Assembly (NCBI GenBank): GCA_973895155.1
Contig: OZ316894.1
Coordinates: 20,156,451-20,220,450, forward strand
Direction of reading: 5' to 3'
Source of the DNA: Marsupella aquatica
Lineage: Eukaryota > Plantae > Marchantiophyta
Length of the DNA stretch: 64,000 nt
Shown: positions 3,276-64,000 of the stretch, piece by piece
Numbering within the stretch: position 1 is the first letter of the stretch
Layout: every line of letters starts with the position of its first letter
Notes under the pieces: generated by a model
Seen by the model: the letters and a program-made list of their open reading frames with translations, nothing else
The model's database searches: none
Told to the model about the DNA's origin: nothing
Made by a program: the position numbers and the translations under genes

Positions 3276-3534
3276 CTCTGGGGGTTCACCTTATGAATCT
3301 TTTCTACTACATGTGTGACGGCCCCAATTGAACCACCTCCCTTCAAACGAAGTGGACGTACTCCAGGGGTTCACCTTTTCAATCTTTGCTATTCTATGTG
3401 CGACAGCCCCAATTAAACCACCTCCCTTCAAGGGAAGTGGAAGTACTCCAGGGGTTCACCTTTTGAATCTTTGCTATTCTATGTGCGACAGCCCCAATTA
3501 AACCACCTTCCTTCAAGCGAAGTGGAAGTACTCC
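3276..3534. repeat. Tandem repeat, 3 x 85 bp
   Basis: Unit CTCCAGGGGTTCACCTTTT...CCCCAATTAAACCACCTCCCTTCAA...GTGGAAGTA starts at 3276, 3361 and 3446. Confidence 0.85.
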
Positions 3535-3890
3535 TTGGCTTTGCACCATCAAAGCGATGAGCCTTATCCCAGACAGGCGATGAGCAGCAGGAATCAATTG
3601 ACGATCTAGTTTACGTGGAGTTTACAATGAATTCAGGTTCGTACAGGGAAAAATTCTCATGATCTTCCAAAACCATCCCCAATCAAGTCATTTTTAATTT
3701 ATGGTTGTTTTGCACACTTCCATCTTCTCCGCACATGTCCTGGTTTTCCTGAACAGAAAAATAATTACAAGCTCAAACTCGTCTAAAAATTGCGTTTCAA
3801 GACCTACTCTATAAGTTGCTTGGAAGTCATCTTCACATGTACTGTACTCTAAGCTCCTTGTCAACTGTACAAATAGAATGTTAGAACTGT

Positions 3891-22252: not shown

Positions 22253-22539
22253 CTCGGGGGTCTCACTATATGGATGCCTCCCCATCATCTGCGACATTTC
22301 TGGGCCCCGAACCCCCTAAAATGTAAGAAAAAATATTTTATTTTTCAACCCCTATGAATTTGGAATATTCCAAAAATTTGATTATAAGGACCCTAATCTT
22401 CTTATAAGTCTCAAAATTTGATTTAAAAAACCTTATTGTTCTTCTCATAAAATTCTTAAGTCTTCCCTTTGAAGCAATAAAATGACCCTATACTTTGTCG
22501 CACGTGATGTGCCATTTTTGTGGAAGTGAAACCCCCGAG
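22253..22539. mobile_element. MITE family A (TIR CTCGGGGGT.TCAC)
   Basis: TIRs CTCGGGGGTCTCAC / GTGAAACCCCCGAG. Degenerate 8-bp TSD TGTAGCTC/CGTAGCTT. Colinear with the copy at 51339. Confidence 0.85.
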
Positions 22540-22661: not shown

Positions 22662-22905
22662 CTCGGGGGGTTCACTATATGAAGGGTCATACATCACGTG
22701 CGACGGTTTGGGTCATTTATGACCCCCTAAGTCACTTTCTATAAAGTTGTACGACACCAATCATGTGATGACACGTATGCATTTTGCAATTAAGCAACCC
22801 TATGTTTCCATTGAAGACTTAATGAGTCTTCCACCAAAACCATTTAAATGGCGCTATATTTCGTCGCACTTGATATGCCACTTCCATGGAAGTGAACCCC
22901 CCGAG
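22662..22905. mobile_element. MITE family A variant
   Basis: CTCGGGGGGTTCAC...GTGAACCCCCCGAG with perfect 8-bp TSD AGTCAACC. Confidence 0.9.
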
Positions 22906-27950: not shown

Positions 27951-29393
27951 TTACAACTTCAGCTCATCACACCGGACCTGGGCATAGCTAAACTCTTGCT
28001 TCTCCCGGTCATGAAGAACCTGAAAGTTCTGTTGTGCTACATTTCCGAAAATGCTGAAGGACGAGAAACTATCTGCAAAGGCCAGGCAGTAAGTGGAGTT
28101 GCTCGGAATATAGATGTTAAATATTTGCCCCCCTAGGAAGACGTTATCCCAAGGGAGATCCAGATCCAAACCTTCAAACTCCATTGTGACGACGGGGAAT
28201 GAGGGATTGCTCACACCCGTCAGATCATAGCACAGGTCGAACCCAAGAGACGCGCTGTAAGGACTGATAGGATACCTGGTCAACACGCTTACCTCGGATA
28301 GCAGAGGGGCGAAACCAGCACTTGCAAGATAAGTGAGAGTCGTTCCAGAATCTGAGATCGTTCCTCCGGTTCCGTTGGCTGCTATATCGAACGTGCCAGC
28401 AGGTATGGCGAGGGCCTTTCCATTCACCTTGATACCCTTCAAACCGATATAGTAAAACGTTGGGGTACCATAATAACTAGCATTCGGATTCTGTACCATT
28501 GGAGTGGAGCCAATGATGGGAACCTTAGGCACCGCAGCATCTCCGAACAGCAGCAGACTGGCCGTGGTATTGCTGTCGTAATAACTTACTAGACAGTAGG
28601 AGAATTTGTTGCTGAAGAGACCGCCCAGCTGAGAGGTGAATGACTGAGGGCCTTGTCCCAATCCCACCAATCCGTCAACTCCTCCGAGGGCCAGATAGGT
28701 GTCCTTATCACATCCAAACGCGAAATGGCCCGCAGTCGTCGGGTTTCCTCCCGTTGTGGTGAGGGTAACGGTTTCGTAAGACATGGTTCCAATTGTCTGA
28801 CCGGATCCATATAAGTAATTGTATTCGCAAGTCGAGTTAGTGTCGCAGTAATCCTGTGGAGCCAAGCATAGACTGTCGGTGCAAGACATGGGGCTGAAGG
28901 TGGACGATTGCGCGGGGTCATACAGGGGGTCATTTTGAGGCAGGCAATAATCGCACGGTGCGCATTGGACCCAGACCAGATCGCTCCCCGTGTCAGCGAT
29001 GGCAGAAAATTTCTGAGCCGGTGTACCAAGGGTGATGTGCATACCATACTCAAATACCATATTAAACAATGGAGAGTAAAAGCTTGTCGAAGGCGCGGGG
29101 CCCGGGGCCGGGGAGTAGTATGACGGACCTCCCTGCGTCGTGCCTGAGAACGCTGCTGCTCTCGCATAGCCGCTCTGAATAGCGAGCTTCAACCTTTCAA
29201 CGAAGTTGGTCCCGGGAACGAATTGTGGAGCTTCGGGGTTAGACCAATGTAGAAGTTTGAGCTGACCTCCATGAGAGCTACTTTCGAGCAAACGCGTGCT
29301 GTCGAATGCATCGGAACCTGAACTGAGAGCTAGAATACTAACTATCCCCACCATGAGCACCGGGAGAGTGCATAACTGAGTGTACGTCCACAT
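27951..29393 (-). CDS. Secreted A1-family aspartic protease (nepenthesin/CDR1-like), intronless
   Basis: Hydrophobic signal peptide, catalytic ADTGSDLVWVQC and SDSGTTLT, Cys-rich NAP-type insert, KFSYCL, FYYIGLKGIKVNG, SIFGNVAQQNF. Start at ATG 29393 or the downstream MVGIVS. Confidence 0.95.
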   Translation of the reverse strand: MWTYTQLCTLPVLMVGIVSILALSSGSDAFDSTRLLESSSHGGQLKLLHWSNPEAPQFVPGTNFVERLKLAIQSGYARAAAFSGTTQGGPSYYSPAPGPAPSTSFYSPLFNMVFEYGMHITLGTPAQKFSAIADTGSDLVWVQCAPCDYCLPQNDPLYDPAQSSTFSPMSCTDSLCLAPQDYCDTNSTCEYNYLYGSGQTIGTMSYETVTLTTTGGNPTTAGHFAFGCDKDTYLALGGVDGLVGLGQGPQSFTSQLGGLFSNKFSYCLVSYYDSNTTASLLLFGDAAVPKVPIIGSTPMVQNPNASYYGTPTFYYIGLKGIKVNGKALAIPAGTFDIAANGTGGTISDSGTTLTYLASAGFAPLLSEVSVLTRYPISPYSASLGFDLCYDLTGVSNPSFPVVTMEFEGLDLDLPWDNVFLGGQIFNIYIPSNSTYCLAFADSFSSFSIFGNVAQQNFQVLHDREKQEFSYAQVRCDELKL

Positions 29394-29769
29394 GATGACG
29401 GATCCTGAATGAATTTCGATCACATTTGATTGAATGATCTCTGTACTGAGCACAGTTGGAGCTCGCGTACCAGCCAGAGAGCTGAAAACTGATCCGGTTT
29501 GTCCAATTGATGGACGATAGTTCTCATATATACTGAGCCGGCCCTCTGTGTAAAGCCAGCTAATTGACTAGCGGTACAGTCAAGGAGCGTCGATCTCAAG
29601 GACGATCTCGCTGAAAGTCAATTGCAATTGTATTTTTTTCTTCGAACGGAAGTCAACTAGAATTCTGGTTTGCATCGCTGGGCAATCCGTAAAAACCAAA
29701 ATATGCATGTACCGTTGCCATTGTTCTCGATCGCCCTCCAACTGTCGGCCTTAGTTCTTTACGTTGAGT

Positions 29770-40758: not shown

Positions 40759-41369
40759 TATTTTAATGTGTAAAACAAACTTTGTAGTGTCTGCAGTATT
40801 TTTAAAATCAGAAAAAAACAAGCGGGAGAACATGTATTAGCTTACCCAAAAGTATTAATACTCCAACAAGGCATGCTGCTGTAATGAAAGAATCAAGTCT
40901 TTGAATAAGTTACAATAGAAGAGAAGGTAGCCAAGACTTGGATACCTCAAATACACTTGCATTGGATTGTATCAAATGCCTGACTCCTACAACAATATGA
41001 GAGCTCTAACAGAAGAAAGGGGGTGCTGTTTCGAAGCTCACAATGTCCATTCTAGCAAGTTGTTTAGTGAGAGCAAGTATTGATGGTTGAATTGCAAGTG
41101 CCTATCACACAAAGGATTTGACTAGCATGCTAGAAAGCTTTTAGAGATGTTGAAGCTTAGGTTCATTTGCTTTAATTTTGTTTCCTCTTTCTCAGGTTTT
41201 AGAGTTTCTTTTTGCTCACTTATTTTGAGTTTGGTTAAGGTCAGGTTTGGACCTCATTTATTTGTTCTTTCGTTTGTACTCTATTTGGCCCTTTGGACCT
41301 CATTTGTTTGTTCTTTCGTTTGTACTCTCTTTGGCGCTTTCTGTACAATGTTTGTTTTGTTGCAAAATG

Positions 41370-42448
41370 TTTTCAGAGGCGGTCAAACTTCGTTTGCCGG
41401 CAGTTGTAGGAGAGTCTGTAGCGCTGTTCAAGAAGCAAACAATACGCCACGGAAATCACCATATGCGCTACCCTTCACAATTTCTCTGCCATTGCGGACA
41501 CGGGGAGTGATCTGGTCTGGGTCCAATGTGCTGCGTGTGATTTTTGCCAGCTTCAATTCGATCCGTTTTACGACCCTCAAAATACTCGACGTACAGCAGG
41601 AGGCTATGCCTTCCAGCGATCCTTTGTGTGCAAATCCATAGGCTAGCTGCTGTGACGCTAACACGAGTTGCGAGAGAGTTCTTAGGAGCGACTTCTCTTT
41701 AGAAACAATTAGTTTCACCACAACGGCAGCAATGATGACGAATGCGAACCGTTTCGAGCCTGGATGTGATTTGGAGACCTTTCTGTACCTCTATGGCGTT
41801 GACGGATTGAGTGAAAGCCCTCTGTCATTCATCTCTCAGCCGGGCAGTCCGCCTAGTCTGGTGCTTTCGGAGATGCTGCGGTGCCTAAGCTCCAATGGTG
41901 CAAAATCAGGATGCTATGTATTTTCGTACCTCCACCTCTTACTACAGTGGTTTGATGGGTATCAAGGTGAACGGGGAAGCCCTCGCCATTCCTGCTGGCA
42001 CGTTCTATATTGCTACCAACGGTACTGGAGGAGTGATCCAAGATTCTGGAACGACTCTCACCGATTCGAGAACTAGTGGTTACTTCCCTCTGCAAAACAA
42101 CATCACCTACTGATCAATTATCCCATCAGTCCGTAAGGCGCGACCATTGGGTTTGACCTGTGCTATGATCTGACGAATTTGTCCAGCCCCACAATTCCCC
42201 GTCGTCACGATGGCGTTAAGGTTTTGATGTGATCTCCCTACAGATAACGTTTTCGTAGGGGCCCAACTCTTCTCGGCAATTGGAATAATTTCACTTACTA
42301 CTGCATGGCGTTCCTTAATACTTCTTCACCGAGGAGCGTTTTCGGAAACATCGCACAACTTGATTTTCAGGTTCTTCATGACCGGGAAGCGCAAATGCTT
42401 GGCTATGCCCAGGTCAAGTGTGATACGATGTGACTCGTTCAGGCTTAA
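41370..42448 (+). pseudogene. Pseudogene paralog of the 27951-29393 aspartic protease
   Basis: Fragments ADTGSDLVWVQC, TYYSGLMGIKVNGEALAIPAGTFYIATNGTGGVIQDSGTTLT, GFDLCYDL and VFGNIAQ..FQVLHDRE, spread over frames with indels. The 5' part is missing. Confidence 0.88.
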
Positions 42449-44216: not shown

Positions 44217-47200
44217 TGTCAATCTGAATTGTCTTCCTTAATTCTGACATACGACTGGAAGCGATCGACCTGTTGATGACCGTATAGATATACGTAGACA
44301 GACTAGTCAGCATTTGCATTAGCTGTAGTTTTCAGCGACACGTAGTTAGCTATCATTTTCAGCGACACGTAGTTAGCTGTCGTTGTTTCTCTCTTTCTGT
44401 TCCACTTGGTTGCCAGCAGGGCCACTCCCTGGACGCGCTCCATTCCACTTGGGCTGCGCCCCTGTCTGCCGCCCGCGGATGATTGTTCCTTCATGTTATA
44501 TGTCCCTGCCCTTGCAGTGATTGTATTATTATCAGACATACCGTGAGAAGCAGATCTGAGCACTGCGTTCATATATTCCATCTCTTGTATATTCTCTCGT
44601 GTACGTGCATCTACAAGTCGTTATGTGTTTTAGATTCACAGGTTATGGGCCATTTTTAATTTTTCAAATCTAACTACATTACACTTTGTTCTAGTACTTC
44701 GATAGTTCATTCGCTCCCTAGCTCTCATTGTACTACCTCTAATTCTTTACTATCTCCAAGTCCAACATCTCCTTTGTTTCATGCTTCGATGGGTAGTTCT
44801 TCCATTGGCTACAATAGTCACCTGATACCGAAACTTGAAGGTAGCCAGAATTTCTCCACCTGGAAAATTCTGTGCACGTCAACCCTCAAGGCTTCAGGTG
44901 CGTGGAAGTTCATTGATGCTACTGCTACCGAACCAGTCAAGGATGATGCTGAGAAGGACTACCAGTTTGCTGAACGCCTGGAACTTTATCACTCTCGTGC
45001 TGCCCAGGCTCGCAACATTATCTTATCAACTTGCAAACCTCACATTCAGCAAACGCTTGCAGACATTATGTCGGCAAAGGATTGTTGGGACAAGCTCCTA
45101 GCAACGTACGACGCAGAAGGCCTGATTCACCTCCAGCACATCTGGGCTAACTTTGTGCATTGTTCTTACCAAGGCGAAGATATTGAGGATTTTTGTGCAA
45201 AATTTCGTGCCAATGTCGATAAATGCAACATTGCAGGCATTGCCACTCAGGAGAAGATTCAAGTGCTGCATTTTGTTACCATTCTTGATTCCCATTTCGA
45301 ACATTGGACTGCCAACAAGAGGGAACAGATGCGCCGTGATTCTGATAATCTTCCTACCTTAAACTCATTGATTAATGAAGTTGTGGATGAGTCTCGCAGG
45401 AGCAATGAACGTGCAGCTCTTCAAGTGATGACAAATCGTGCATCTCCTGTGGCCCCACGACTGAAGCGACCAAAGCCTTTCAAGGCTGAGAGCTGTACTA
45501 CTTGTCAGCTTCCCAACCACAGTGAGGAGCGCTGCTACTACACGCATCCTAATCTTCGACCAGAGAAGTGGTAGCCAAATCCGACAACCATGCAGTGGGT
45601 CCAAGAAAACACCCGACATCTTCACCATGTGCAAGTGCTGCCAAACCATGATGCCGAGTCTGAGTACGATATATTCTCGAGTTATTATGCACAGTTTGGG
45701 CATGCACATGCAACAAATCAGCTTCGGCATCACAAGGATGCCACGATTTGGATTGTTGATTCTGGTGCAAGTCACCATTTCTGTAATGATCGTCACCTCT
45801 TCACTGAGTATGAAGTAGATCCTTTACCTATCAACACGGGCAATGGCTCTGTGATCTCACCAGGCAAAGGAGTCATTCAATTAAAGGTGACTACAAACCA
45901 CTCTCCTTATCCAATGTGCGCTACACACCCTCGAGTTTTCTAAACACAGTTTCAGAGGATATCCTTGAGCAGCATGATGTCAGTTGGCGTAGTGAACTTC
46001 AACAATTCATTCATCTGCCTTCCGGCACAGAGTTTGCTGCTGTCAAGAAGCAACATGGTCTCAAGATGTTGGATGTGCGTGTCCCCCAAACTTCAGAGTG
46101 TCATGCTATTTTACTTCCACAAACTCAGCTTGATCTCAACATCTTACATCGGCGCCTGGCTCATCTACACATTGATGGGATCAAACAGCTCATACGTCAA
46201 GAACATCTTTCGGTCAATACTGATGCTCCCTTCCTCCCTTGTGAAGCGTGCTCCTTGGCAAAATCTACCAAGATTATTTGTCGTATACCACATGAGCGTG
46301 CTACACAACCTTTTCAACGCGTTCATGTGGATACCTGTGGAAAGATGACTACCATTGGCATTGGCCGTAAGCAATACTTTCTGATTTTTACTGATGATTA
46401 TTCCCGTCATCGATGGGTGGTTAGTCTTTCCAATAAGGGACAGGTATTCTTGGCACTGCAACATTTTTTTAAATATGTCGAAACTCAGTTTCAATCCAAC
46501 ATCTCTGAACTCCAGATAGATAATGGTACTGAGTTCGGAGGCAAACAACTTGTTGAGTTTTTGGAACATCATGGATGTCGCCTCATCTTATCAGCACCAT
46601 ACCATTATGAGCAGAATGGTATTGCGGAACGATCAATTGGCATTATTACTCAACGTGCTCGTGCCATGTTAATTGATGCATATCTTCCCAAACAACTATG
46701 GCCGGAGGCAATTGCAGCAGCTGTTCACATCACCAATAGATCTCCTACGGCTGTCAACCCAGGGGAGTGCACACCTTACACACGGCTTCAGCAGGCCCTT
46801 GACCGTCCGCATCACAGCAACATTCAACACCTCCGTACCTACGGTGCTATTGCGTATGTTCACACTCCGCCTGAGAAACGTCCTCGTGGGGAAAAATTTG
46901 TTGCGCGTGCCCGTAAAGGGTATCTGGTTGGATATGCCAATGGATTAAATTACCGTGTGTGGTTTCCTTCTTCTAATGAGATTGTGCGGTCTGCTTACGT
47001 TCAATTTGATGAGTCTCCACGCCAAACTCCTATCAACTACATTGATACACTTCACACTACTTCGATTACCAGCAATGAGTGTGTTGAATTGTTTCTCCCC
47101 TCGCCATTGGCATTACCTGGAACATCAGATGCCGATCCAGTGCAGCCGGCTGATTTGCAGAATCCTGACTCAAATCAGGCTTTACAACATGCTCCTATGG

Positions 47201-49469
47201 ATAGCATTTCATCAACACATGCTACTGTGGACATACCAACACCCGTCATTTCACCACCTCTTGGGAATCTCTCTGATGCTGAAATATATGTGGAGCGGGC
47301 AACTCATGAGCAACCTCGCCGTTCGGCTCGAACCAACAAAGGTGTTCCACCCGTTCGACTTGACCTGGCAGTTCACAAACTACTTACTGCACTTCCGCCT
47401 ACTCTTCTTTATAGCTATGCTGCCGCTCTTTATCCACAAACTCTGGATGACTTTCCTCGTTCACACAAGGAAGCTATGACCAGACCTGATGCTGCCAAAT
47501 GGAAGGAAGCGGAGGCTCTTGAACTTCAACAACTACACAAGCTTCGAGTGGCAAATCTTTTGACGCTTCCACCAGGAGCACGGTTGATCCCATCCAAGTG
47601 GGTATACAATGTGAAACGGGATGGGCTTTACAAAGCTCGCCTGGTGGCCCGAGGGGACAAGCAACGTCCCGGGATGGACTACGAGGACACTTTCGCCACT
47701 GTTATCCGCCCAGAGACTTTTCGTTCAGTAATGGCTCATGTTGCATCTGCTGATCTTGAAGCACATTGTGTTGATATTATCACCGCTTTCCTCAACAGCC
47801 TAATGGCATCGGATCATCCCATTTACATTCGTCCACCACCTGGCTATGAGACCTACGATGCCTATGGTGTTCTACTTGTTTGGCTTCTTCTCCGTGCACT
47901 TTATGGCCTCAAGCAGTCAAACAAACTGTGGTACGTAACTCTTACTGAATATCTTATTCAAAATGGGTTTCTACCATTGGAGTCTGATCCTTGTGTACTC
48001 CGCAATGATCTTGGTGATCTGTTGGTCCTGTGGGTAGACGACATTGTCATCATCTCTAAGAATCTTCATGGAATTCAATGCATCAAAGCTCTCTTGGCTG
48101 CACAATTTCAAGTACGTGACTTGGGTGAGATAACCAATTATCTTGGAATCTCTATCTGTCGGAACCGTGTGGAAAAGACTCTCTACTTATCACAACATAC
48201 ATACATTCGGAAGATCCTTCGTCGATTTCATATGGAAGATGCTCGTCCAGCACAGTCGCCATCTATTGATACCACTTCACTTGTTCCATACTCGGCTATT
48301 GCAACAGCTGATCAGCGACAGTTATACCAAGCAATGTTGGGGTCAGTAATGTATGCTGCTGTGTGGACACGACCTGATTTGTCTGAACGATGTTCACGAC
48401 TTGGCCAATTTGCCCACAATCCAGCTCCAGAGCATGAGAGCTGCTTGCAGAGGGTCTACAGTTACCTTTGTGGCACGATCTACCTTGGCATATGTTTCCG
48501 TCCAACGTCAGTTACAGGACTTGAAGTTCATTCGCTTGGATTCGTTGGCTACTCTGACTCATCTTATGCTGATAACATCAGTGATTGCAAATCTACTAGT
48601 GGATACCTTTTTAAACTCACAAATGGCCCGGTATCTTGGAAATCTTGGAAGCAGCCTGTGACTGCAACCTCCTCGACTGAGAGTGAATATATAGCTTATT
48701 CTTTTGCCACCAAAGAGGCCATGTGGCTCAAACGACTGCTGAGGGAATTACAGTATGATGCACCAGATGTTCACAAGGTATTGATCTATGGAGATAATAA
48801 ACCAGCAATCTCACTCACGATCAATCCAGCTCACCATTTCAGGACAAAGCATATAGATGTACCATATCATTTTGTTCGAGAGCAAGTGATGCAGGGTTCT
48901 GTTATCATTGAGTATCTGTCTACGAAAGACATGCCTGCAGATGGACTGACGAAGCCACTCACTGGAAGCAACTTTCTACACTTCATGAATCGTCTTGGCC
49001 TAGAACTCTTTCCTACCAATTCGAATGTTCAGAATCTGGGGGGTGTGTCAATCTGAATTGTCTTCCTTAATTCTGACATACGACTGGAAGCGATCGACCT
49101 GTTGATGACCGTATAGATATACGTAGACAGACTAGTCAGCATTTGCATTAGCTGTAGTTTTCAGCGACACGTAGTTAGCTATCGTTTTCAGCGACACGTA
49201 GTTAGCTGTCGTTGTTTCTCTCTTTCTGTTCCACTTGGTTGCCAGCAAGGCCGCTCCCTGGACACGCTCCATTCCACTTGGGCTGCGCCCCTGTCTACCG
49301 CCCGCGGATGATTGTTCCTTCATGTTATATGTCCCTGCCCTTGCAGTGATTGTATTATTATCAGACATACCGTGAGAAGCAGATCTGAGCACTGCATTCA
49401 TATATTCCATCTCTTGTATATTCTCTCGTGTACGTGCATCTACAAGTCGTTATGTGTTTTAGATTCACA
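44217..49469 (+). mobile_element. Full-length young Ty1/copia LTR retrotransposon inserted in the LINE
   Basis: 424-bp LTRs at 44217-44640 and 49046-49469 (about 6 differences by eye, all A/G), TSD CATTC, PBS GGTTATGGGCC, PPT GGGGGG. Gag-PR-IN-RT-RH motifs: WIVDSGAS, TDDYSR, DNGTEF, QNGIAER, YKARLVARG, LYGLKQ, WVDD, ADGLTKPL. Confidence 0.97.
44789..49056 (+). pseudogene. Copia gag-pol polyprotein with an in-frame TAG (45572-74) and a frameshift near 45905-45940
   Basis: ORFs 44774-45574 and 45590-45943 share one frame; the 1046-aa ORF 45916-49056 is in another frame. Confidence 0.88.
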
Positions 49470-51338: not shown

Positions 51339-51634
51339 CTCGGCGGTCTCACCATATGGATGTCTCCCCATCCCCTGCGACGTTTTTAGGCCTCGGACCC
51401 CCTAAAATGTAAGAAAAAAAATTATTTTTCAACCCCTATAAAGTTGGAATATTCTTGGAATATTCCAAAAATTTGGTTAGAAAGACCCTAATGTTCTTAT
51501 AAGTCTCAAAATTGAATTTAAAGGACCCTATTGTTCTTCTACAAAAATTCTTAATTCTTACCTTCAAACCAATAAATTGACCCTATACTTCGTCGCACGT
51601 GATGTGCCATTTTTGTGGAAGTGAAACCCCCGAG
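51339..51634. mobile_element. MITE family A copy inside the LINE RT
   Basis: CTCGGCGGTCTCAC...GTGAAACCCCCGAG with perfect 8-bp TSD GCAGAAAT. Confidence 0.93.
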
Positions 51635-54344
51635 GCAGAAATCCATGAATGGTTGAGTAGAAATTGCAAACAGTAGAGGAGAGAGAGGGCATCCTTGCCT
51701 CACGCCACGTTTCATCTCAATATCCTCTGTCCACAGACCATTGACCAAAGCTTTGGAGCTTCCATTGCTCAAGAGGAATCGAACTAAAAAGATAAAGTGT
51801 GAACCAACTCCCAGCAGGTTCATAGTTTCCCAGATATATGACTGGTCCACCCTATCAAAAGCTTTTTCAAAATCGAGTTGCAAAAAAAGGGTTGGAGTCT
51901 GCGTGATACTAATCCAATCACTAGCAAGCCAAGTAAGTGAAATATTTTCTAGGATGTGGCGTCCGGGAATAAAACCAGTTTGCTGTGGATTAATCATCTT
52001 CGGTAGGTGAATCTTGAGTCTCAGAGCTAGAAGCTTTGCCAGGATCTTATACGTGGTGGTTAGCATTGTGAGCCCTCGCCAGTCACCTAATCTTCTTTTA
52101 TCCGTCTTCTTAGGGATAAACCAGATTACTCCATCTTTAATCCCGTAAGCAATGTGTCGGACAGACTTCCAAAATTCACAAATCATCTCGTACGTAGAAT
52201 CCTACTTTCATGAATTCCTAGCAACTTCGGAGTACCTCCGCTGTTATTCCATCAATACCCGGTGCTTTGTTGCCAGGTAGTAATAGCAATGTTTCATGCA
52301 GCTCTTGAATAGTAGGTAGCCTCTCTAATCTTCGTATCTTTGCAGCCGAAAGAGCAAAGTTTGTGTGCTGACATAACCTTCTCCTGGCAGCAAGCATCTC
52401 CCTACGCATCTCAGTCGTAGCCACCTCAGAAGTGTAAAGTTTCACACAATGGCGTTGCACTTCTTTAATCACCATGCTCTCTTCCGTTATCTCTTCCCCA
52501 TCTGCCCCTATAAGATATTCCATATGCTCCCTGTCTCTTTTTGCTTTCACCATTGCAAAAAAGAATTTAGAAGGCTCATCTCCTTGTCCAAGCCAATTGA
52601 TTCTTGCGAGCCTCCAATTACGATGGGCTTCTTCCAGTTCCATGTCTCTGACACACAATTCTGTATATGTGAAGTCCAGAATTGTGTCCTCAAAGTAGTC
52701 CTCCATTATTGCAACTTTCAAAAGACGAAGCCTAGCCCTCAGTCTACGTAGCTCTTCGTCCCAAGGCACAGGGGAGTGCTGGATCTCCATGTAGCACCTT
52801 CTTAACCTTTGTATAGCATCCGCAAATCTCAAGTGAGGGTCCACCGTTCCTTCCTCCCCAGCTTCCCATGCTGCTGCCAGAGCTTCTATATTCTCTCTTT
52901 TTCCAAGGACCGAAGGATTTGCCTTGAAGTATGTCACTCTGCGGACCTCAGTAGCCAGGGGGTTACATGGTGTCATTCGAACGGTAATAATAATAGGGTC
53001 ATGATCAGACAATGTCGAGGATCCATCATGCATCAGTTCAATCACCTCCTCCAGCCATTGTCCCTTTTTGCTCAGATTAAACCTGTCCAGTCGAGACTGA
53101 ACCAGTCTGCCATTCCTTACTCTTCTCCAAGTAAAACCGGATCCAGTCACTTGTCCTAAAATGACAAGGGCATCCTGTAAGTCAAACCGTAGTTTCAATA
53201 GACGCCAAGCGTCCAGCTCTCTTCCTCTCACTCTAGGAGATAGGCCGGTAGAGTCTTCTTGCTGCTCTGTCATGTTGAAATCCCCCCCCCCCCCCCATGA
53301 TCCATTTACCCTGGGGCAGGGTGTTCAACAAGTCATTCCACAGTAGAATACAATCACTCATCAGGTTAGGGGCATAGATACTGATCAAGCCAAAATCCCC
53401 TTCCTCCGAATGTATCTTAATCCACACTGCCCTACCTCTATCCAAAATTCCAGATGCCGTCACAACAAAAGACGGATGAATCAAAATGGCTGTACCTCCC
53501 TTACCCTCGTCTGGAGGTGAATAGAAATACTAAAAGGAAGGTAAAATTGTTCTCAGCGCAATGTCCAGCCTGAAAGCATCCGCTTTAACCTCTTGTAAAG
53601 CTAGAAAATCAATGGGTGAACGTAAAGTTGAAACCCACTTAACCACCATATTTTTACGGTCAGGACTACAGAGTCCACAAACATTCCATGAAGCAAACCT
53701 CAAGGTCTTCATCAGTTCCCTGTATCCCTCCAGTACAGACCTCCACAGGGTGGAGCCCACTCATTCCTCCACCTCAGAGGTTACAGTCGGGGTCAGCCTT
53801 CGGGCTCCGCAACTCAGACTCCGGGGGCACAACACTTTTACTTACCAATGATATTTCTACCAGCGCCCCAGTGTCTTCTGTCTGCACACTCACAGGCCCC
53901 AATTTTTCCGACTGCAACATTGCAGGACCCTCCAAGCTCCTGCGTAGTTCACCTTTCAGCTTCTTCTCCGGTGTAGACCACCCCTCCGCCTCCTGCACTT
54001 TGGCAATTGAAACAAAATGTAAGGAGCGCTGATTTCTTGCCTTCTTTTTCCATTTCTCCTTTTTCTTATCTTTAGGTGGAGATCTTCTGGCCAACTTCCT
54101 AGTTCACTCTCTCTTGAGTTCCGTTCTAGCAATGTAGCCCTCAAATTCGGACATTTCCATGTCCGAGTGGGGTTCAGATGCCGAGATGCGTTCTCCGTCC
54201 CCATCTTCCGAGGTTAAAGCGGGATCTCCGCTCGCAACACCAATTTCATTGGTCACGCTAGGATTCAATGTACCCCTTGCAGGTCCGCTTATATCACTTC
54301 CTTCACCAATTGTAGCAACAATGGGAAGTACCGTCCCTTGCAGG

Positions 54345-55626
54345 CCCTGGGCCCTCAGCATTACTAATGCAGGGAGGACGTGCGAACAACGCAAGGGTAT
54401 TTTTAATGTAATGCAAACTAATTTTTATAATATTTTTTAAAGTAGGCAACATCCATGTATATACATTCATCACAATATTAGTAATAAGGCTCTTATCAAA
54501 TACATGTCACATTAATCTTATGCAAGGGTACCTAAAATGCCAAGGACACGTGTCACTATATGGTTGGCACACATGTCATCACTTCATTGGCACACATGTC
54601 CATATAGTCAATCAGACATTTAATTATTTATCCTCTTAAGGCAAGTTTGGTTTCATGGGTTTGCATGGTAGACTTGTTTACCCGCATGTGTTAAGTTGGG
54701 ATTTAAGTAAATGGTGGGCCAGGATTTTGGGGCCCAACTCGTTTGGGGTTCTGGGATTGATGGGGACCCATGAATCAATCCCACATAGACAAACAAGATT
54801 ACTTTTGAATTCCCTTGAATCAAATGGCCAGGTGTGTTTGTGTGTGGGGTGGTGTACTCCCTTGATCATTGGGTTGGGGGGGGGGTACCCGGTGCTCACA
54901 GTTGTTTGATTGCAGAGATGGCAGGAAAATTACCCACCATGTCTAAGTAACAATTTCAGCCAAAGGAGATTTGATGGTATTACTCTCCACAATTTTCAGT
55001 AGTCATTTTTTGTATTATTAGTACTTTGTGTCTAGAATATGTATGATTAATGTGTGGTTTGATGTGTCAGGTTGCATGAAAGAAGTTGCCAAAAACTCTA
55101 CTTATCATTTGGTGTTAATGGTTGATGTCATACCATTCTTAGTCAAGATAGAATAATTTAGCAATTGGAGTTTACATAAGTAGTATATATGCAATTATTC
55201 CTCCAAGGATATAGCATAGCATAATAATGCATTTGTAATAGTTAAGTTTATCTCTATGAGGTCTACAAGTTGCCTGAGTTATAGTCATATACTCTAGGAA
55301 GAACTATAAATCTTTAGTACTAATTTTGTTATGATCTATATAAAATATGTACCGTGAACATCAGCGTAACATAATATTCCCCTATGCAAAATAGAATCTT
55401 TTATGTTTCAGTATGATATTTACAATTTTTAAAAATTCAAGGGTTTTTTTAATTCCTTCAAAAACTCTGTTATAATTTACAAAAGGATAAATTTTTATAG
55501 GAAAAAATAATGTTTTTACATTAACAAGGGATTTTTTTTTGTGAACAAAAATATTAAGAAGGGGTACACGGGGGGTGTCTGTTCTCAGGGGGGTTCACTT
55601 AATATAGTAAGAGTGAGGGCCCAGGG
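54345..55626. mobile_element. Family B non-autonomous element (1.28 kb) inside LINE ORF1
   Basis: CCCTGGGCCCTCA...TGAGGGCCCAGGG with perfect 8-bp TSD CTTGCAGG. Confidence 0.93.
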
Positions 55627-56924
55627 CTTGCAGGTCCTGTATAACCTGAGGAATATCATCATTATGCAGAAGGGCAAGAGGTGAGTGCTCCACCAATTTG
55701 TCATCTTCAGTTGGCATTCCCCATTCTTTGTCAGTGTTTACAGACTAAGAGTTCACATTCACCTCGGCAGAATGCCCAAAAAGAATTGGTTGATCCGACA
55801 TTTCAGCGCCCGGGTACATCGAACCACAAATTGGGTTAGTCATCGTCAGGGCATCAATCACAGATGCCGCGGCCCCATCCGGAATGATACTCAGAGGCGC
55901 AACCTGCGGTTGCGTAACCCCCTCCTCAAGGGGAGCATCAATGTTTCTCACAATCGTGGGCTCCTCTCAGTGCTCCTCAACATTCTCAGGAGGTGGAACC
56001 ACCATCTCAGAGTCCTCTAGTGACCTACAATCGCGAGCTAAATGTCCTTTTTTCCCACATCGAAAGCAGTGGAAAGGGATGTTTTTGAAAGTCACAGGTT
56101 GCCAGATTGACAATCCTTCTTGAATTTCCACTTCAACACTCAGTGGCACCTCTCGTTGCGTATCCCAGAGCACACAAGCACGGTCATGTGGGTAGGAGCT
56201 GAGATCGTCACCTTGAATATAGCGGGGAATATAGTGGAGGATGTCTCCAAGAGAAGCAGCCAGCTTCCTTCGACAGGGCTCAAAGATTAAAGCTCTGAAA
56301 GGAATTTCGATCCAGATAGGCAACATAGTATAGGACTCACTCCGGATATCAAAGGATGGGTCCCACGGGAATGTGAACACTCGGGGGTCTCACTCCGCGA
56401 AAATCTCATATCACGTGCGACGAAGTATAGGGTCCGTTAATTGGGTTTCTCGGAAGACTTAAGAAGATTTGTGTAAGAACAATAGGGCCAACTTTATATG
56501 TTGGACAACTTGTAAGAATAATAGGGATATTAATATTTTTGACTTTGTAGATGGAAGGCATACAAAGAAGTTAGGGGGTCTTTGTGTCAGACTATGTAAA
56601 GTACACGTGTCACTATGTCATTGGTACACGTGGCACACATAACATTCCCAATATATTTTCCTAATTTTTCTAATATGTTAACATGGCAAGAATTTGAGAA
56701 TGATCTGGTTTTATGGGGACTCACGTTTAGGGTTTGACCGGGATTAAGTTTGAAATTTTTCTGTTTAACGTGTCTCGTTTACCTCAATTGGCCCTTGTCA
56801 GTCCCTCCCGTGTCGTTTCCCTCCACTATCCCTTTGGCCCCACCCGCTCTTTGCCTCAACAGAGTCTCTTTTGTTTGTACCTTGCAGCAAATGGCCTAAA
56901 CGGGGTCTAAACCAGTTGTGCTCC

Positions 56925-57760
56925 TGCTTGGAGTGAAGGTCGGATCGAGCGAGAGTGTGCTCTCGACTGCACTTGGAGTGAAGGTCGGATCGAGCGAGAG
57001 TGTGCTCTCGACTACACTGTTGCTGGAGTGAAGGATCGACTCCTGTTGTGCTCTCGACTGCACTGCTGCTGCGGCTGGAGTGAAGGATCGAGCTGCGTTG
57101 CTGCTGCGGCTGGAGTGAAGGATCGAGCTGCGGCTGGAGTGAAGGATCAAGCTGCGGCTGGAGTGAAGGATCGAGCTGCGTTGCTGCTGCGGCTAGAGTG
57201 AAGGATCAAGCAAGATTTCTCGGAGAAGGATCGAGCTGCGTTGCTGCTGCGGCTGGAGTGAAAGATCAAGCAAGAGTTCTCGGCGAAGGATCGAGCGAAG
57301 GAGTGAAGGGGAGAGCGAGAGTGAAGGGGAGAGCGAGAGTTCTCGGCGAAGGATCGAGCGAAGGATCGAGTGAAGCGCTGCTACTTGGAGTGAAGGGGAG
57401 AGCGAGAGTGTTGCGCTCTCGGCTGTGCTGTTGCCGTTGCTGCTTGAAGTGAAGGATCGACCAAGAGTTCCTGGCTGCGCTGCTGTTTAGAGTGAAGGGG
57501 AGAGCGAGACATCTCAGCTGCGCTGCTGCTTAGAGTGAAGGGGAGAGCGAGACTTCTCAGTTGCGTGCGCTGATTAGAGTGAAGGAGAGAGCGAGACTTC
57601 TCAGTTGCGTGTGCTGATTAGAGTGAAGGGGAGAGTGACACTTTGCAGCTGCGCTGCTGCTTGAAGTGAACCCGGGAGTGAAGGGGAGAGCGAGACTTTG
57701 TAGCTGCGCTGCTGCTTGAAGTGAACCCGGGAGTGAAGGATCGAGCAAGAGTGTTGCGCT
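56925..57760. repeat. Compound minisatellite (GGAGTGAAGGATCGAGC / AGAGTGAAGGGGAGAGCGAGA / GCTGCTGC)
   Basis: More than 20 GTGAAGG cores with variable spacers. Confidence 0.9.
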
Positions 57761-58032
57761 CCGGGAGGTGGGTGTCGAGAGTGTTGCATTGCTGCTTTCT
57801 AAAACGGGAGCTGCTAGCTTGCTGAAACGGGAGGTGGCTACTGCAGGGAGTGTTGCGATATCTCAAACCGGAGTGCCAGGATTGGAGCTGCATTGCTGCG
57901 TTGCTCAATCGGGAGGTAGGCGCTGCCTACTTTGACGATCGTACTTGCTTGCTTGCTACTATTTGACGCCCAAATCTATCACGCATGGCACACCTAGAGT
58001 CGATCTGGTAGCGGTCATAGACGAGGAAGCAC

Positions 58033-58260
58033 CTGATCTGCCCGTTTAGCTTTTCAGCTATAAAATTCCTGTTCTGAGCTCCGTGAATGGCGATAAGCTC
58101 TTTGAGTATTTTGTCCTCCAGAGCTCGCCATGCCCTCGCAGATAAGGTTTGGAGCCACTGCTGAGATCCAGCTCCAACTTCCCAGCCGAATACTAGCTCA
58201 GTATTGTCGTCATTTGTCTCGACGTTGTCCATACTCATCTCTCCTTCTGTGTCCGCATCG
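58033..58260 (-). pseudogene. Captured R2R3-MYB first-repeat exon fragment
   Basis: RG(H)WRALEDKILKELIAIHGAQNRNFIAEKLNG(RS)G ending at AG|GT. Matches the RGHWRPAED.KLKELV..YGPQNWNLIAEKL.GRSG pattern with two 1-nt indels. Confidence 0.75.
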
Positions 58261-58986
58261 ACGACTTGACGCACATGTTTTTTGGATGCATCGTTAGAGT
58301 AACCGCGAGTACAGGTCTCCAATGATTGCACTTGCCATGATTGACCACCTTACATGATCTCCATCCATGGGCTGGACCCCAGGAAAAAAATCATGTAACT
58401 TGACTTCTGTCGTCCCCCACACACCCGCACAAATCTGGTTCTCTATTACATGCCTTGGTGTCCCGTTGGCTGGTTCCTGCAATTTTCTTTAAGTCATCTA
58501 GAAGAGAAGACTTCTTTAAGTGTTTACTCAGCCAGGGGGGACCACAGCCTCCAGCCATACTGGGTGGCGGGCCTGGTCAAGACGTGGATGACGCTCGTGC
58601 TTGATTTTAAATTCTCTTTTGTTTCTCAAGCTTCTGGGCAAGGGCATTACCATTCTGGATTCTGAACTTGATCCTATTCAGGTTAGCTATTCAGGTCTGT
58701 TGAGCGATTGGGTTATTATTTTATTGCTGTAGTAACATGCATGGCCAATTGGTTGTCTTCATGTAATGGGAAGTTTTTGAAACTTAGAAATTGAATGGTG
58801 GTTTCAATTTTGTTCACAGGTTGCAAAAGGAATTGTAGAGGTTGTCATCAGCGCTTGCAGCAGTGAGCACCAACACTTGCGGTGAAGCAGTTTGCTAGAA
58901 CACATAGTGTACCTAGTGAATTGTAAGTTGCCTGTCATTGCACGTCTAATCGTCTGGCCATTCACCGAGTATAAAAAAATAGTGCC

Positions 58987-59385
58987 ATGGCTATATTGGG
59001 CATTACATTAGAAGCGAATTATGAGAAGCTCCTTCTGCAGCATCCAGATGAATGCTGCTGGTGTGAACCTTGTGTCAAGTGCAGGGTTGGTGATGGGAAT
59101 TTTGAATGGTTCCATTGCTTCTGCTTGAAAATGCGTGGAAGGCTTGTTACTAGGACATACATGGGAAAGCATGGCAAAGTTGTCACACGTCGTTGGAAGT
59201 GCTCTTGTATAAGGCCAACCATTTGGCCTCAAAATGAGTGTCTTTTACGCAAGATTGTCATCCCGGACACGCTTGACATTGTAGTCCCTGATAGTATTCC
59301 ACATTCAACTGAGCTTGATATTGTAGCCCCAGATAGTATATCAGATCAAGCTAAGGTTACAACCCATGGATGCTTGACATTGTAG
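58987..59385 (+). CDS. Small Cys-rich ORF, possible degenerate PHD-like zinc finger
   Basis: CCWCEPCVKC...EWFHCFCL...RWKCSC; ATG in AGTGCCATGG context, downstream of spliceable non-coding exons. Confidence 0.4.
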   Translation: MAILGITLEANYEKLLLQHPDECCWCEPCVKCRVGDGNFEWFHCFCLKMRGRLVTRTYMGKHGKVVTRRWKCSCIRPTIWPQNECLLRKIVIPDTLDIVVPDSIPHSTELDIVAPDSISDQAKVTTHGCLTL

Positions 59386-59701
59386 TCCTTGATAGTACAT
59401 GGATGCGTTGTTCATATATGACTAGGCCTTTGTTTGCAAGGCTGCAATTGTACCATCCATGATATATGAGAATATTTTTCATTCCCATTATGTGGCAAAG
59501 TTTTGCAAGCTGGCATTGTATTTATGTATGTCTTGGTTGGTGGGTGTTCAGGTTGCACTGTGTAGTTGACTTCATCTGGGAGGGAGGTTTGCAGATCATT
59601 GGAGCAGGTGCTATGATTAACCTTATCTTTGTCTATGGATTGCTCACTATCATCATGTCCCCCTCATATGTGATGTGCTTTGTGATGATTGCAGTTGAAC
59701 C

Positions 59702-60376
59702 ATGCCGACAAGGACTTCAAACATAAAGAAAGCAACACAGTCCTCTGACAGAGGAGCCTCTTTGGAAGAGGTATTGCGTATTCCGTTGTTCTCTGAGCAA
59801 GAGATTCTACAAACTAGCCCTCATGTTTGTGCAATTTGTGAGCATGGTGGGAAGTTGGTAATTTGTGATGGGCCATGTCACAGGCAATTTCATTATGTGG
59901 TTGGAGATGAAGCCCCTAATGACTCTTGCCCCTGTGTAGTCCTTCCCCTCCATCATGGAGGGAAGCCATGGTTTTGCCCAAATTGTAACCAGGACCAGGC
60001 CATGTGTTATGGGTGCCGCACTGTGGGACCGTCACCTACAATTGTGCGAAAATGCTCTGATCGTTTTTGTGTACGATTTTATTGCTTTGGGTGTTTGGTA
60101 GCTGATGCAAAGTCCTGCCCACTGCATACATGTGTGACATGTTATCAGAGTCTTGAGGGTCAGATGGTCAAGAACATGGTACAATGTCTACGATGTCCAA
60201 ATGCCTGGCATACAGATTGTCTCCAGATGATCAAAAGCAAAGGGTTCGCTCATGATAGGGACATCTGGGACCATGAAGCACATGGACAACAGCGACAGAT
60301 GTTTTATTGCCCCCGTCATCCTATTGATCCACACCTCAAGACTCCAATCAGGGACCACATTTCATGGCTCCAATGA
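59702..60376 (+). CDS. EDM2/NSD-type composite PHD-finger protein (transposon-borne)
   Basis: VCAICEHGGKLVICDGPCHRQFH..CPC..WFCPNC..CYGC..KCSDRFCVRFYCFGC..CPLHTCVTC..QCLRCPNAWHTDCL..YCPRHPIDPHLKTPIRDHI. Intact 224-aa ORF. Confidence 0.85.
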   Translation: MPTRTSNIKKATQSSDRGASLEEVLRIPLFSEQEILQTSPHVCAICEHGGKLVICDGPCHRQFHYVVGDEAPNDSCPCVVLPLHHGGKPWFCPNCNQDQAMCYGCRTVGPSPTIVRKCSDRFCVRFYCFGCLVADAKSCPLHTCVTCYQSLEGQMVKNMVQCLRCPNAWHTDCLQMIKSKGFAHDRDIWDHEAHGQQRQMFYCPRHPIDPHLKTPIRDHISWLQ

Positions 60377-60871
60377 TCTGAATAATGAACAAACCTATTA
60401 CTTAGGTTTCAACGTCTTAGTGGGGTATGAGCAAGGCACATACTTAAGGTGCATCATGGGTGGTAGTACCCAATTTTATTAGTGTTGACATTTTGTCATA
60501 ATTAAGGTCACTAATAGTGCTGCATTTTGATGAGCAGAAGCACTAAACTTCGGGAATTGTTAGAAAAGCAGGCGAAAAGGATATTTTGTCCAAAGATATT
60601 TTATCCAACTTTAGCGGTATATCATGATTTTCACTGAATACATTTGCATGTATGATGGATTGCATTATAAAGTGTTTTGGCCTATTAGCACTTCTATTGT
60701 TAAATGTATGCTGACATTATGTACATTACATGAGAATGTGTATGTTGTCATTGCATCTCTTGAAGATCCTAATGTGTTTCCCTTGTGTGTATTTCAAATG
60801 TATTTGTGCAGGTCTTTCTGTTATCAACTCCAAAAGCAATGGTGCTATGCATGTTCTAGATTTGTATTGCA

Positions 60872-63800
60872 ATGGCAGCCCCTAAACCCAACTCTGTTAA
60901 ATTAATACGCAAAGTTGGGGATGACAAGGCTGATTTACCAATTTGTGTTTTGTCATTCAAAGAAGGACACACCCTACATGATTTTAGGGCTCGTATTGCC
61001 TCTACTCTAGACTTTGACTTTGATTTTTGGGATGAGAGACTTCCTGGTCGAGTGAAACTTGTACATGAGAAATTAATTGATCTGTCTGAGCTGGATGGAA
61101 GAGTTATTGTTGTACAACAAGAACTTGGAGATGGTGGGAGGATCCCACCAGTACCCTGTCATCCTTGCACTCCTGCATCATTGGGTCCAAATACTGGGAC
61201 ACCACAACTGGGGCCAACGGCACTAGCACCCTCCCCTGTAAGGGCTTCTTTTGAGTCACAATTGATGGGAGATGTCCCATCAAAGCTATGGAAAGATGAG
61301 TGGATGAGGTTAGAGAAATGGGTACATAAGAAGGGTTATGGTGATCACAATTGGAGAATTCGTACCTGGGATGAGGGGACAGATGTTCGAGGGCATCTGG
61401 AGTGTCTTGAATGTAGGGAAACTTATGGCAATGCAGACAACTCTCAGAACCCTAAATCCATCTCCAATTGCTTTAGTAATTTTAAGACCAAACACTTGGT
61501 CTTCAATAAGCACAAGGATAACTATTGTCGGAGAAGGGGCATTCCTTCTACTTTGGTTCAGGTAGCAGACATCTCTGAGAAGCCAGAATATGATCATGCA
61601 GACGCCATCAAAGTAGGTGTTGAGATAGTTCAACGATTGAATGCTGAGCTTGGGGATGATGGCAAACTATTCTCTATTGTTCCTGATCCCAGTACTCCTG
61701 AGTATGTAAACAGGTCTTTCCTGTTTAAGGTTCGATGTACTGTCTGTGGAATTGCTTCACACTAACTTGTGCCCCAAGAAGCTTACCTTGGAGCCCAATT
61801 TGAGGACACACTTAGTGAGTCGAGATCACTTGGATGCATTGGAGACTAGGCATGACACAAAAATGCTTGCCTTGAGGTCTGGGAAGAGGGGCAGGCCAAA
61901 GAGGACTGATTCTAGGGACCTACATCCTGGTCAGAGCGGGATTTTGAAGTTCTTTAAAGATGATGGGTCCCGGACAGGCAGCAGTTCAGGTTCAGGTTCA
62001 GGTGTGTGTGAATCTGTTGATCTTGGTCTGAGTTTGCTTTGCTGGGGATTATGGGTAGAGAGAGGTGTGCCTCGACTGTTATGGAAGGGTATATCTTATG
62101 ATATTTCTGGCATTTTAGATGATCAGTCTGGGGGAATTACATGGCATTGTGAGCCAAGTTGTTGCTTGGATGTTTTCCATCCAAGTAGAGAGAGTGTTGT
62201 GAGTATAGCAGGCTGTTTTAGACACAAGGATTGCTTGAGGTTATCACAGAATGGAGGAGGATTTGAAAATCTAACTTGTAGTGAATGTGATTCTATAACA
62301 CTAGAAGATGATTTTCGTGGACGGGTGCACAGGGAAGCGGAAGCAGTAGTCCACAGAGGGAGCCGAACCACTGCTGGTGGTATACGTTTGGATTATTTGA
62401 CCAACACAGAGTTAAGAGATCAAGTGCACAACCTGAACTCTGTGCGACGAAAAGAGCGTTGGTTGTTAGCTTTGCAGGCTCAGAAAGTATGTGCCTTGAG
62501 CACCAGGAAACGAAAACTAGAGGAGTTGTTAGGAGTTGCAGCAGACAGGAAGGATTTGAGATTGTTTCTTAGGAGTATTTTGAATGGACACAGGAATGGT
62601 GCATTTGGTGGTAAGGAGGGTTTGTGGGATTTCTTGAAGGATGTAGCTCGCAATTTAGGCAGGAAGCCAAAAGGTAATCGTTACAGTAATAGGACTCGAG
62701 CTATTGCTCAGGCTATGTTCCAATTTGGGGGCCGTCAAGTTGCTCATTGTTTTGCACGAAACTTGACAGCCCCTAGCCTTGTGACCCTAAAACGTGATAG
62801 AGCAAAACTCACACCTTTTCGAACCGGGTTACGGAAGGAAACCTTTCAGGAGATTGCTAGAGTGTTGTCTGCTGCAAAGCACTCATTGGGCATTGAGGGG
62901 GATGTGCCTGTTATCTTTGCTGAGGATGAAACAAGGATCAAAGAACGCCCTAGGTAATTGGAACTGGACATTTTTCCAATTGTTTTTTTAATGACTTTAC
63001 AAGTAGCACTTGGCTGGAATTGCTGTGATATTGAAAAATTGCATGTCTGTGTTTCAGGTGGGAGGCAAAGTATGATACTCTCATTGGTTTCTGTGGACCT
63101 TCAGAGCAGCATGTATGCTCCTATGGTTTGGAAATTCTAGTTGGTGAAGGTGATGAGGGGTATGATAAAATTGTAAGTACATTTGAACAATGCCCCAAGT
63201 GCATGTATGCCCGAGTTGTGATTGTGAATCCTCTGCATGAGTCCTTACCTAAATTGGCTGTGTGTGCACTTCCAACTTGTAATAAGTTCACAGCTTCTTG
63301 GGTACGAGAGCATTGGGTCCAGTTAAAGGCTTTTTGGGATGAATATTGTAGAGCTATGGTAGGCCCTTTGCTTGGACATGCTAGTGATGGTGATGCACGT
63401 CGCCGAAAGCTGATGCTGGAAGATTACAGAGGGCAGAATGGATCATACCCAAGGTACGGAGTTGGGTGGGAAGGGTGGACATACTCTGTTTCAATTCTAC
63501 CAAATGGAGATTTGTATGGCTTTGGTGACCAAGACCAACCTCATAATGGGAAAAAGATGATAAACCCCTTAGACAGAGTGTCTTCTTTACTGGTGCTAGG
63601 AGATCAACATGCATCTTTATCTTATGTAGCTAATGTCTACAATCATTATCCAATTCATGAACATGGCATGGCTTGGGATGATGTGAATAGGACTGACCGG
63701 CAGAATTGGGCAGGTCCACAACGAATAGCAGCAAGAAGAGTGCAGCAATGTCTGAAAGATATGTATGAGAGGAGAGATGTACAACATGAACGAAGTTTAG

Positions 63801-64000
63801 GAACTCAGTTGTACTTGGAGATTTGTGCAGATTACTTAGATATTTTCTTTTCTCCAGTTCATGATTTGAGGTCCCGTATTGTGTTAGCATCCAAGGTTTC
63901 ATTCTTTCTACGTTTGTGGAGATTGTGGTTGAGGTTTGGTGACCATTCAGTGGGTGGGAACTTTGCAGCACACACTGAGAAAGACATGATGTCTATTCAG
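60872..64000 (+). CDS. P-element-like DDE transposase; exon 60872-62953 (one frameshift at ~61750), intron 62954-63057, exon 63058 to >64000
   Basis: Two C2H2-like fingers (CLEC..H..H; CTVC..H..H) and AT-hook KRGRPK. Core motifs VIFAEDETRI|R-WEAKYDTLIGFCG, GHASDGDARRR, DQDQPHNGKK, DRQNW, FFLRLWRLWL. The last exon is open for 314 codons to the window end and is missed by the ORF track. Confidence 0.8.

Follow-up and report, generated by a model that had tools for sequence, protein, structure and literature searches.

An EDM2-like triple PHD-finger gene inside a repeated, likely P-element-like transposon of the liverwort Marsupella aquatica

A histone-reading module tied to a transposase-type enzyme is exemplified by the PHD finger of RAG2 together with RAG1. 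For plants, only a small number of chromatin factors encoded by transposons have been reported, and those that were tested recognise DNA motifs. Additional chromatin genes in transposons have already been described: VANC of the VANDAL (MuDR) elements binds tandem sequence motifs of its own element and removes methylation (PMC5735166), while TET/JBP in fungal DNA transposons and a SET domain in HarbingerS and MuDR represent host-type chromatin genes present as a second ORF (PMC12730594). The host protein EDM2 binds H3K9me2, favours distal polyadenylation together with AIPP1 and ASI1, and acts on silencing marks in both directions, increasing them at some elements and reducing them at others (PMC7472560, PMC7529245). 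For P elements, DDE and D(2)H motifs have been described (PMC3698922), and Table 1 of PMC9033089 includes six land-plant TIR superfamilies, with P not among them. The main text of a review on plant gene capture (PMC13317346) leaves PHD unmentioned. Neither an EDM2-derived gene in a transposon nor P-like elements in bryophytes were found in the literature searched, although subscription papers, Repbase or supplements may hold some.

The window analysed here, a 64,000-nt stretch of Marsupella aquatica DNA (contig OZ316894.1, positions 20,156,451–20,220,450), contains at 59702..60376 (+) an intact single-exon gene of 224 codons from ATG to TGA, with an upstream in-frame TGA 6 bases before the ATG. 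Its product consists of a short N-terminal tail, a family-specific helix, three PHD fingers of the NSD/EDM2 type and an EDM2-type tail. In Pfam it matched PHDvar_NSD above the cut-off (5.8e-08) and, below the cut-off, PHD-1st_NSD (2e-05), PHD_NSD and PHD (both 0.0014), and the best solved relative by sequence was NSD2, residues 657–795 (E 4.2e-06). The preliminary description had likened the Cys/His spacing and the C-terminal tail to the composite PHD region of EDM2, and this was confirmed: all 24 Cys/His zinc-ligand positions were kept in comparison with 11 host EDM2-type cassettes, with a single His-to-Cys swap, finger 2 had a deletion of roughly 10–20 residues, and the tail YCPRHPIDPHLKTPIRDHI matched the land-plant EDM2-like pattern. 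The latter was present in 10/10 land-plant EDM2-like proteins tested, in the PHD ORF itself and in seven of ten relatives, and in none of the six proteins of the algal-type group of the tree or the seven other NSD-type cassettes. The RFD and methyltransferase-like parts were absent from the ORF, which is stop-bounded at 224 aa (its relatives had 187–304 aa), in agreement with the stand-alone form without a methyltransferase-like C-terminus proposed before; a DNMT1-RFD was detected by Pfam in the host protein P0093. The structure predicted for residues 31–224 with 71 aligned sequences reached pLDDT 94.4 and pTM 0.88, the fold prediction from 7 sequences only having a pLDDT of 44.6. The closest structural matches were the PZP and NSD tandem PHD modules, with a low best Z-score of 5.5 (rmsd 2.8, 75 aligned) that confirms the finger fold only, and apart from NSD2, found by sequence, no solved structure of a whole EDM2 cassette was present in the structure searches. 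The product is predicted to be a chromatin-binding three-finger zinc module.

Six relatives of the PHD ORF were found among 22 candidates, with 213–304 aa and 44–82% identity, and a profile search gave 518 matches with small proteins making up the top five and, within the 150 that were listed, at least another five; this small family was extended by three cluster members. In metagenomes, 4 of the 139 scanned stretches gave relatives, two of them distant, and none were present in 144 prokaryote genome stretches or 28 viral contig stretches. The phylogeny with EDM2 and NSD modules suggested in the preliminary description placed the small proteins apart: they formed one group with a support of 98 in a rapidly built tree, whose 64 rows comprised 14 small proteins, 42 host rows selected from 140 covering the cassette, and 8 others, and a clade of their own in a careful tree of 37 rows (100/100), with a stem branch of 1.35 changes per column. 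By this phylogeny, the PHD ORF belongs to a separate clade of stand-alone 190–300-aa proteins. The check for purifying selection was positive: against L001, a close relative, pS was 0.89 (saturated, with 7 of 32 four-fold sites identical) and pN 0.36–0.39, so that no pN/pS ratio is computable at the saturated synonymous sites, but it lies well below 1, which argues for long purifying selection on the small family. The zinc ligands were complete (24/24) in 9 of the 14 full-length members and 23 were kept in the remaining 5; from six incomplete members, five stop or go out of frame early and one has no start. The two close relatives whose loci were retrieved are both broken, L001 by a premature stop and L002 by a shift of the frame; copies of a transposon would be expected to look like this, although lesions in metagenome contigs could be assembly errors. 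The downstream sequence of these two loci (670 and about 70 bases, respectively) had no transposase match in such short stretches, and the pairing with a transposase is thus established for the element family of this window only. A passive capture of the Pack type, meaning a fragment close to its donor and in neutral decay, was also considered, and the data argue against it: identity of the small family to host cassettes is only 29–37%, the family has its own clade, and pS is saturated against the much lower pN.

Concerning the donor, the top-scoring host proteins for 13 of 14 small-family members were short liverwort paralogues (in Marchantia, for instance, MPTK1_1g03210), which end 5–49 residues after the PHD tail and are already without the methyltransferase-like domain. 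Another Marchantia gene, MPTK1_4g03050 (P0109), is annotated as a PHD-only EDM2-like gene of 280 aa and has a long branch in the short liverwort group. Since the short liverwort paralogues end after the PHD tail, the capture need not have been the step at which the methyltransferase-like domain disappeared. The previous suggestion that the element had captured an EDM2-type gene and kept only the reader holds for the stand-alone form of the module, but this form may be partly inherited. AU tests accepted both the grouping with the short liverwort paralogues (p 0.43) and that with full-length bryophyte/lycophyte EDM2 (p 0.37), and we infer an old capture from an EDM2-like gene.

In other PHD fingers, the acidic residue before the first Cys reads the H3 tail, and the Asp of the finger 1 Cys-Asp core contacts it. 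An Asp or Glu 2–4 residues before the first Cys was found in 90 of the 94 other cassettes versus 0 of the 19 small-family members (33 of 127 rows, in which the pattern was unmatched or cut, having been dropped), and at this place the small family has a Pro/Ala-His motif and a conserved helix. The finger 1 core, Gly-Gly/Gly-x-Leu and Cys-Asp, was kept in 18 of the 19 members. Because the acidic residue before finger 1 has been lost, the mark preference of EDM2 is not assumable for the PHD ORF; the loss could mean weaker or no histone binding, and the comparison suggests that the histone-tail pocket of the transposon module has been changed relative to EDM2.

The left TIR of the element together with its subterminal region is located at 56380..56487 (+), starts with CTCGGGGG and cuts into a LINE ORF1; it was recognised by a 74–80% match over 94 nt to MITE ends and by a jump in contig depth. 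Directly before it, TGTGAACA at 56372..56379 (+) is a candidate left copy of an 8-bp target duplication, as judged from the duplications of this length at the related MITEs, with the right copy beyond the window. No second TIR was found from 56380 up to 64000, the window end, and the right end of the element lies beyond it; the PHD ORF sits 3.3 kb inside the left TIR. Three MITEs with the same TIR type are present at 22253..22539 (8-bp duplication with 2 mismatches), 22662..22905 (perfect 8-bp duplication AGTCAACC) and, within a LINE, at 51339..51634 (perfect 8-bp duplication GCAGAAAT). The 5′ region of the element includes a CpG-rich tandem array at 56931..57739 (+) with 17 copies of GAGTGAAGG, and no such units were found elsewhere in the window. 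Two of the array units resemble the TIR core in reverse, and the units may represent transposase-binding sites or a promoter array. The CpG observed/expected ratio was 0.75–1.0 over 56380–58379 versus mostly 0.14–0.47 further into the element. A probable captured MYB-repeat fragment at 58041..58133 (−; Pfam Myb_DNA-binding E 0.0096, below the cut-off) belongs to a variable part of the element, where many indels were present among copies in the run contigs. Upstream of the PHD gene, a Cys-rich frame of 136 codons at 58975–59385 (+) had no Pfam match, and the contigs had deletions and replacements at its 3′ end.

The PHD ORF had been described as lying inside the element and directly upstream of the transposase, and both statements were upheld, the stop codon being followed after 498 bp by the transposase ATG at 60875. 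Six runs under three organism codes contain the stretch, and the contigs of four were compared (X2, X3, X5 and X6). Run-contig depth, which is not equal to copy number, was 405–424 in the LINE flank, 6535–6672 in the ORF bins and 1592–10048 in the transposase bins in X2; 250–262, 1595–4500 and 1986–5018, respectively, in X3; and 0–7, 121–133 and 114–187 in X6. It thus stepped up at the TIR and was level across the ORF and the transposase in these three runs, and therefore the PHD ORF shares the repeat status of the element. The main ORF contig had a depth of 1636 versus 1999–2165 for the main transposase contigs in X3, and of 91–99 versus 115 in X6. The run X5 was shallow and uneven, with a depth bin of 1984 at 59815–60095 and about 10–25 around it. 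The region 59053–63975 was tiled by overlapping contigs from different runs, and no single listed contig spans from the TIR to the transposase; one X3 contig joins 57856 to 63968 (with 33 letters on the short side), which reads as a copy deleted internally and thereby deprived of the two genes. The PHD ORF was whole and nearly invariant among copies, with 1 difference in a 554-nt X3 contig and 5 in 519 nt of X6, and none of the best-supported 40 of 772 substitutions and best 12 of 116 indels fell into it, a count that is not a rate. The CpG observed/expected ratio was 0.33 in the PHD ORF, 0.24–0.39 in the transposase and 0.59 in a host gene of the window. Both genes of the element are read in one direction, share a single CpG-rich region on their 5′ side and are each preceded by an acceptor-like AG. 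The PHD ORF is inside the repeated element and present in its copies within this element family, as judged by the shared repeat depth.

The transposase gene starts with exon 1 at 60875..62953 (+), which aligns from residue 3–7 of relatives with 1,479–1,529 aa and includes the first predicted catalytic Asp at 62925. It is followed by a 104-nt GT-AG intron at 62954..63057 (+), predicted from the sequence and from the flanking frames being contiguous in relatives, and by exon 2 at 63058..64000 (+), cut by the window end, with the second predicted catalytic Asp at 63386 and the D(2)H motif at 63533–63544. An extra base near 61752 shifts the frame in the copy of this window; it is missing from the contigs of X2, X3 and X6, and therefore most copies are open there. 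The SDGD and QDxxH motifs were invariant in 41 aligned transposase sequences, and a later Glu, beyond the window end here, was invariant in the relatives; this fits the DDE and D(2)H motifs of P elements and thereby a feature of the P superfamily transposases. In a protein atlas, the nearest clusters of P0007, a relative with 76% identity, were P-transposase families (score 0.94, 196 of 256 features), and these neighbours carry PF21787/PF21788/PF21789. In Pfam, neither the three transposase pieces of the window (at E 0.1) nor five long relatives (at 0.05) had a match, including THAP, and sequence searches against solved structures gave no P transposase match. The transposase is likely P-element-like, and because a THAP match was missing, the element is filed as P-like and not as a canonical P element. 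Named relatives include liverwort proteins, from Riccia (with identities of up to 60%) and Calypogeia, as well as proteins of a fern, a brittle star and a coral, and some relatives in this family of about 1,500 aa are fused to Tudor, C1 or Ulp1 domains. Scans for the transposase were positive in 1 of 78 stretches, a 2.1-kb contig, and in 0 of 33. The positive one, positions 176–1155 of L005, is a 39% relative in a contig of an archaeal MAG and probably a eukaryotic contaminant of the archaeal bin. A PHD-transposase fusion protein was also sought and rejected, since 0/68 transposase relatives matched the PHD ORF and none of the 150 listed PHD matches matched the transposase; longer fused forms of the PHD module gave one match among 3,076 candidates, which was unrelated, and this is weak evidence. 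None of the 12 small-family proteins looked up came from a named, annotated genome, and many transposase relatives are named, from Riccia and Calypogeia; the PHD gene may be absent from many elements of the transposase lineage.

The preliminary description had also called the insertions of the family into other TE sequence consistent with targeting. Two of the four insertions are indeed in TE sequence (both in one LINE), but the two at 22.3–22.9 kb are not within a recognisable TE, the four nearest frames of at least 95 aa around these MITEs having no Pfam match. To the left of the element lie 56.4 kb, of which about 15.6 kb (about 28%) are recognisable as retroelements, at which cover the chance of at least two of four insertions in TE is about 0.3 by hand arithmetic and thus not significant; therefore, the insertion sites give no evidence of targeting, and selection against genic insertions pushes the same way. 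Among other features of the window, a Copia element at 44217–49345 (+) has 300-nt LTRs that are 98% alike and long gag and pol frames, which indicates a recent insertion. The LINE contains a roughly 1.3-kb insertion at 54339–55632 with 28-nt inverted arms, an end of which resembles a Helitron/Helentron start. An intact aspartyl protease (TAXi) gene is present at 27954–29567 (−), with an inverted, broken duplicate at about 41100–42400 (+) that is 74–79% alike.

The PHD ORF is probably a functional accessory gene of the element. Our main reading, to which we assign a probability of roughly 0.4, is that it represents an intact and conserved second gene of a multi-copy P-like transposon, whose predicted chromatin module would dock the transposase on nucleosomes as an adaptor. 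According to it, an EDM2-like gene would have been captured by the element long ago and everything but the reader lost. The PHD module has no enzyme part and no evident sequence-specific DNA-binding domain, and for any action on its own element it would depend on a partner, the simplest being the transposase. The latter has zinc fingers and would attach to the TIRs, perhaps also to the 5′ repeat array, and the PHD module would dock it on nucleosomes, so that the pair may reach element ends in methylated chromatin or bias the target choice; the CpG-rich 5′ region and the AG acceptor-like sites of both genes are compatible with one promoter and two spliced products. Transposases can activate their own copies (bioRxiv 10.64898/2026.08.24.746577). 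A complex prediction for the PHD module with transposase residues 1–292, made without alignments, gave no informative model (score 0.00). In a more extended and unlikely version, an old, so far unlisted land-plant P-like lineage would have made a chromatin cofactor of its own out of the reader module of the host EDM2 system, with the histone pocket retuned. This cofactor would bring the transposase to nucleosomes bearing marks, and it might also determine if transcription ends behind the PHD gene or continues through the transposase gene.

The same arrangement, with two genes on one strand behind one CpG-rich 5′ region and an AG acceptor-like site before each, would also suit an anti-silencing decoy competing with host EDM2-type/H3K9me readers, or a read-through factor favouring transcription past the end of the PHD gene into the transposase, in both cases without touching the transposase, and the tandem array in the non-coding 5′ part resembles that of VANC-target elements (PMC5735166). 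However, a lone histone reader has no evident way to pick its own element, in contrast to VANC, which binds sequence motifs (PMC5735166); moreover, the family departs from EDM2 in having lost the acidic residue ahead of finger 1 (0/19 versus 90/94) and is without the other domains of EDM2, and the strong CpG depletion of the coding parts indicates that the element bodies have long been methylated, and we regard this explanation as rather doubtful. The loss of the acidic residue, the gain of a family-specific helix before finger 1, the His-to-Cys swap, the deletion of roughly 10–20 residues in finger 2 and the stem branch of 1.35 would also be expected if the module has been selected for binding a non-histone target, be it DNA, RNA or a protein of the host, and might, for instance, stabilise or repress the transposase; against this, the Gly-Gly/Gly-x-Leu and Cys-Asp core of finger 1 has been kept in 18/19 members, and such a role appears improbable.

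Two further explanations were considered. If the small family were a conserved bryophyte host gene family, from which the element took one copy fairly recently and passively (Pack-type), its deep conservation would reflect selection in the host; Marchantia does have an annotated EDM2-like gene with PHD fingers only (MPTK1_4g03050), the element also carries the probable MYB fragment, and the short flanks of L001 and L002 are without a transposase match. But P0109 belongs to another clade, the host paralogues come from named, annotated genomes in contrast to the small-family proteins looked up (0/12), 10 of 19 relatives lose a ligand or leave the frame or end before finger 3 is complete (excluding the one without a start), and the PHD ORF is whole and nearly invariant among the element copies, which makes a host family improbable. 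Two unrelated elements with a normal host gene, or with an independent nested insertion, between them might be argued for from the right TIR not being within the window and from no single listed contig reaching from the TIR to the transposase; this has a very small probability given the depth step at the TIR, the level ORF depth, the tiling contigs, the 57856–63968 deletion joint, the lack of another TIR in between and the CpG depletion common to the ORF and the transposase.

A reader-only EDM2 derivative in a young multi-copy element would be a compact system for testing the way in which cut-and-paste elements deal with histone marks. If true, the hijack of the EDM2 reader would be the capture of machinery that lets plants read through intragenic heterochromatin. 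The PHD module would provide a 194-residue natural model of the EDM2 cassette, and the locus would add a P-like system whose MITEs could serve directly as substrates, within a group of plants for which laboratory models exist.

In common with Arabidopsis EDM2 and EDM2-like proteins, the PHD ORF has the three-finger NSD-type PHD cassette, with its 24 ligands at corresponding positions and with the C-terminal tail of these proteins. However, it is without the N-terminal RFD-type and the C-terminal N6-adenine methyltransferase-like (ELP) domains, has the His-to-Cys swap and the deletion in finger 2, has lost the acidic residue that precedes finger 1, groups in a clade of its own and is located inside a transposon; from these sequence differences, the family is not a plain copy of the EDM2 reader. 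With the P superfamily (P element, Galileo, 1360, THAP9) the element shares TIRs, 8-bp target duplications, the D..D and D(2)H motifs and MITEs, as far as these are described in PMC3698922. A duplication of 7–8 bp, as in this superfamily, was found in the three MITEs (two perfect, one with two mismatches), the right end of the large copy being beyond the window. In contrast to the described P elements, there was no THAP or P match in Pfam, the transposase of about 1,500 aa has its own N-terminal region, the TIR starts with CTCGGGGG, and the element carries a second gene. With VANC of VANDAL (MuDR) it has in common an extra transposon gene acting, by prediction here, on chromatin and tandem repeats in the non-coding part, but the transposon protein in Marsupella is a PHD cassette. 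A histone-reading module tied to a transposase-type enzyme is likewise present in chromodomain-bearing Gypsy integrases, as given in PMC9033089; compared with these and with the RAG2 PHD, there is no homology beyond the PHD fold, and for the PHD ORF the contact with the transposase is a deduction. Finally, in contrast to the transposons bearing TET/JBP and SET genes, which encode enzymes, the second gene described here encodes a predicted reader without a catalytic part, and it does so in a plant P-like element.
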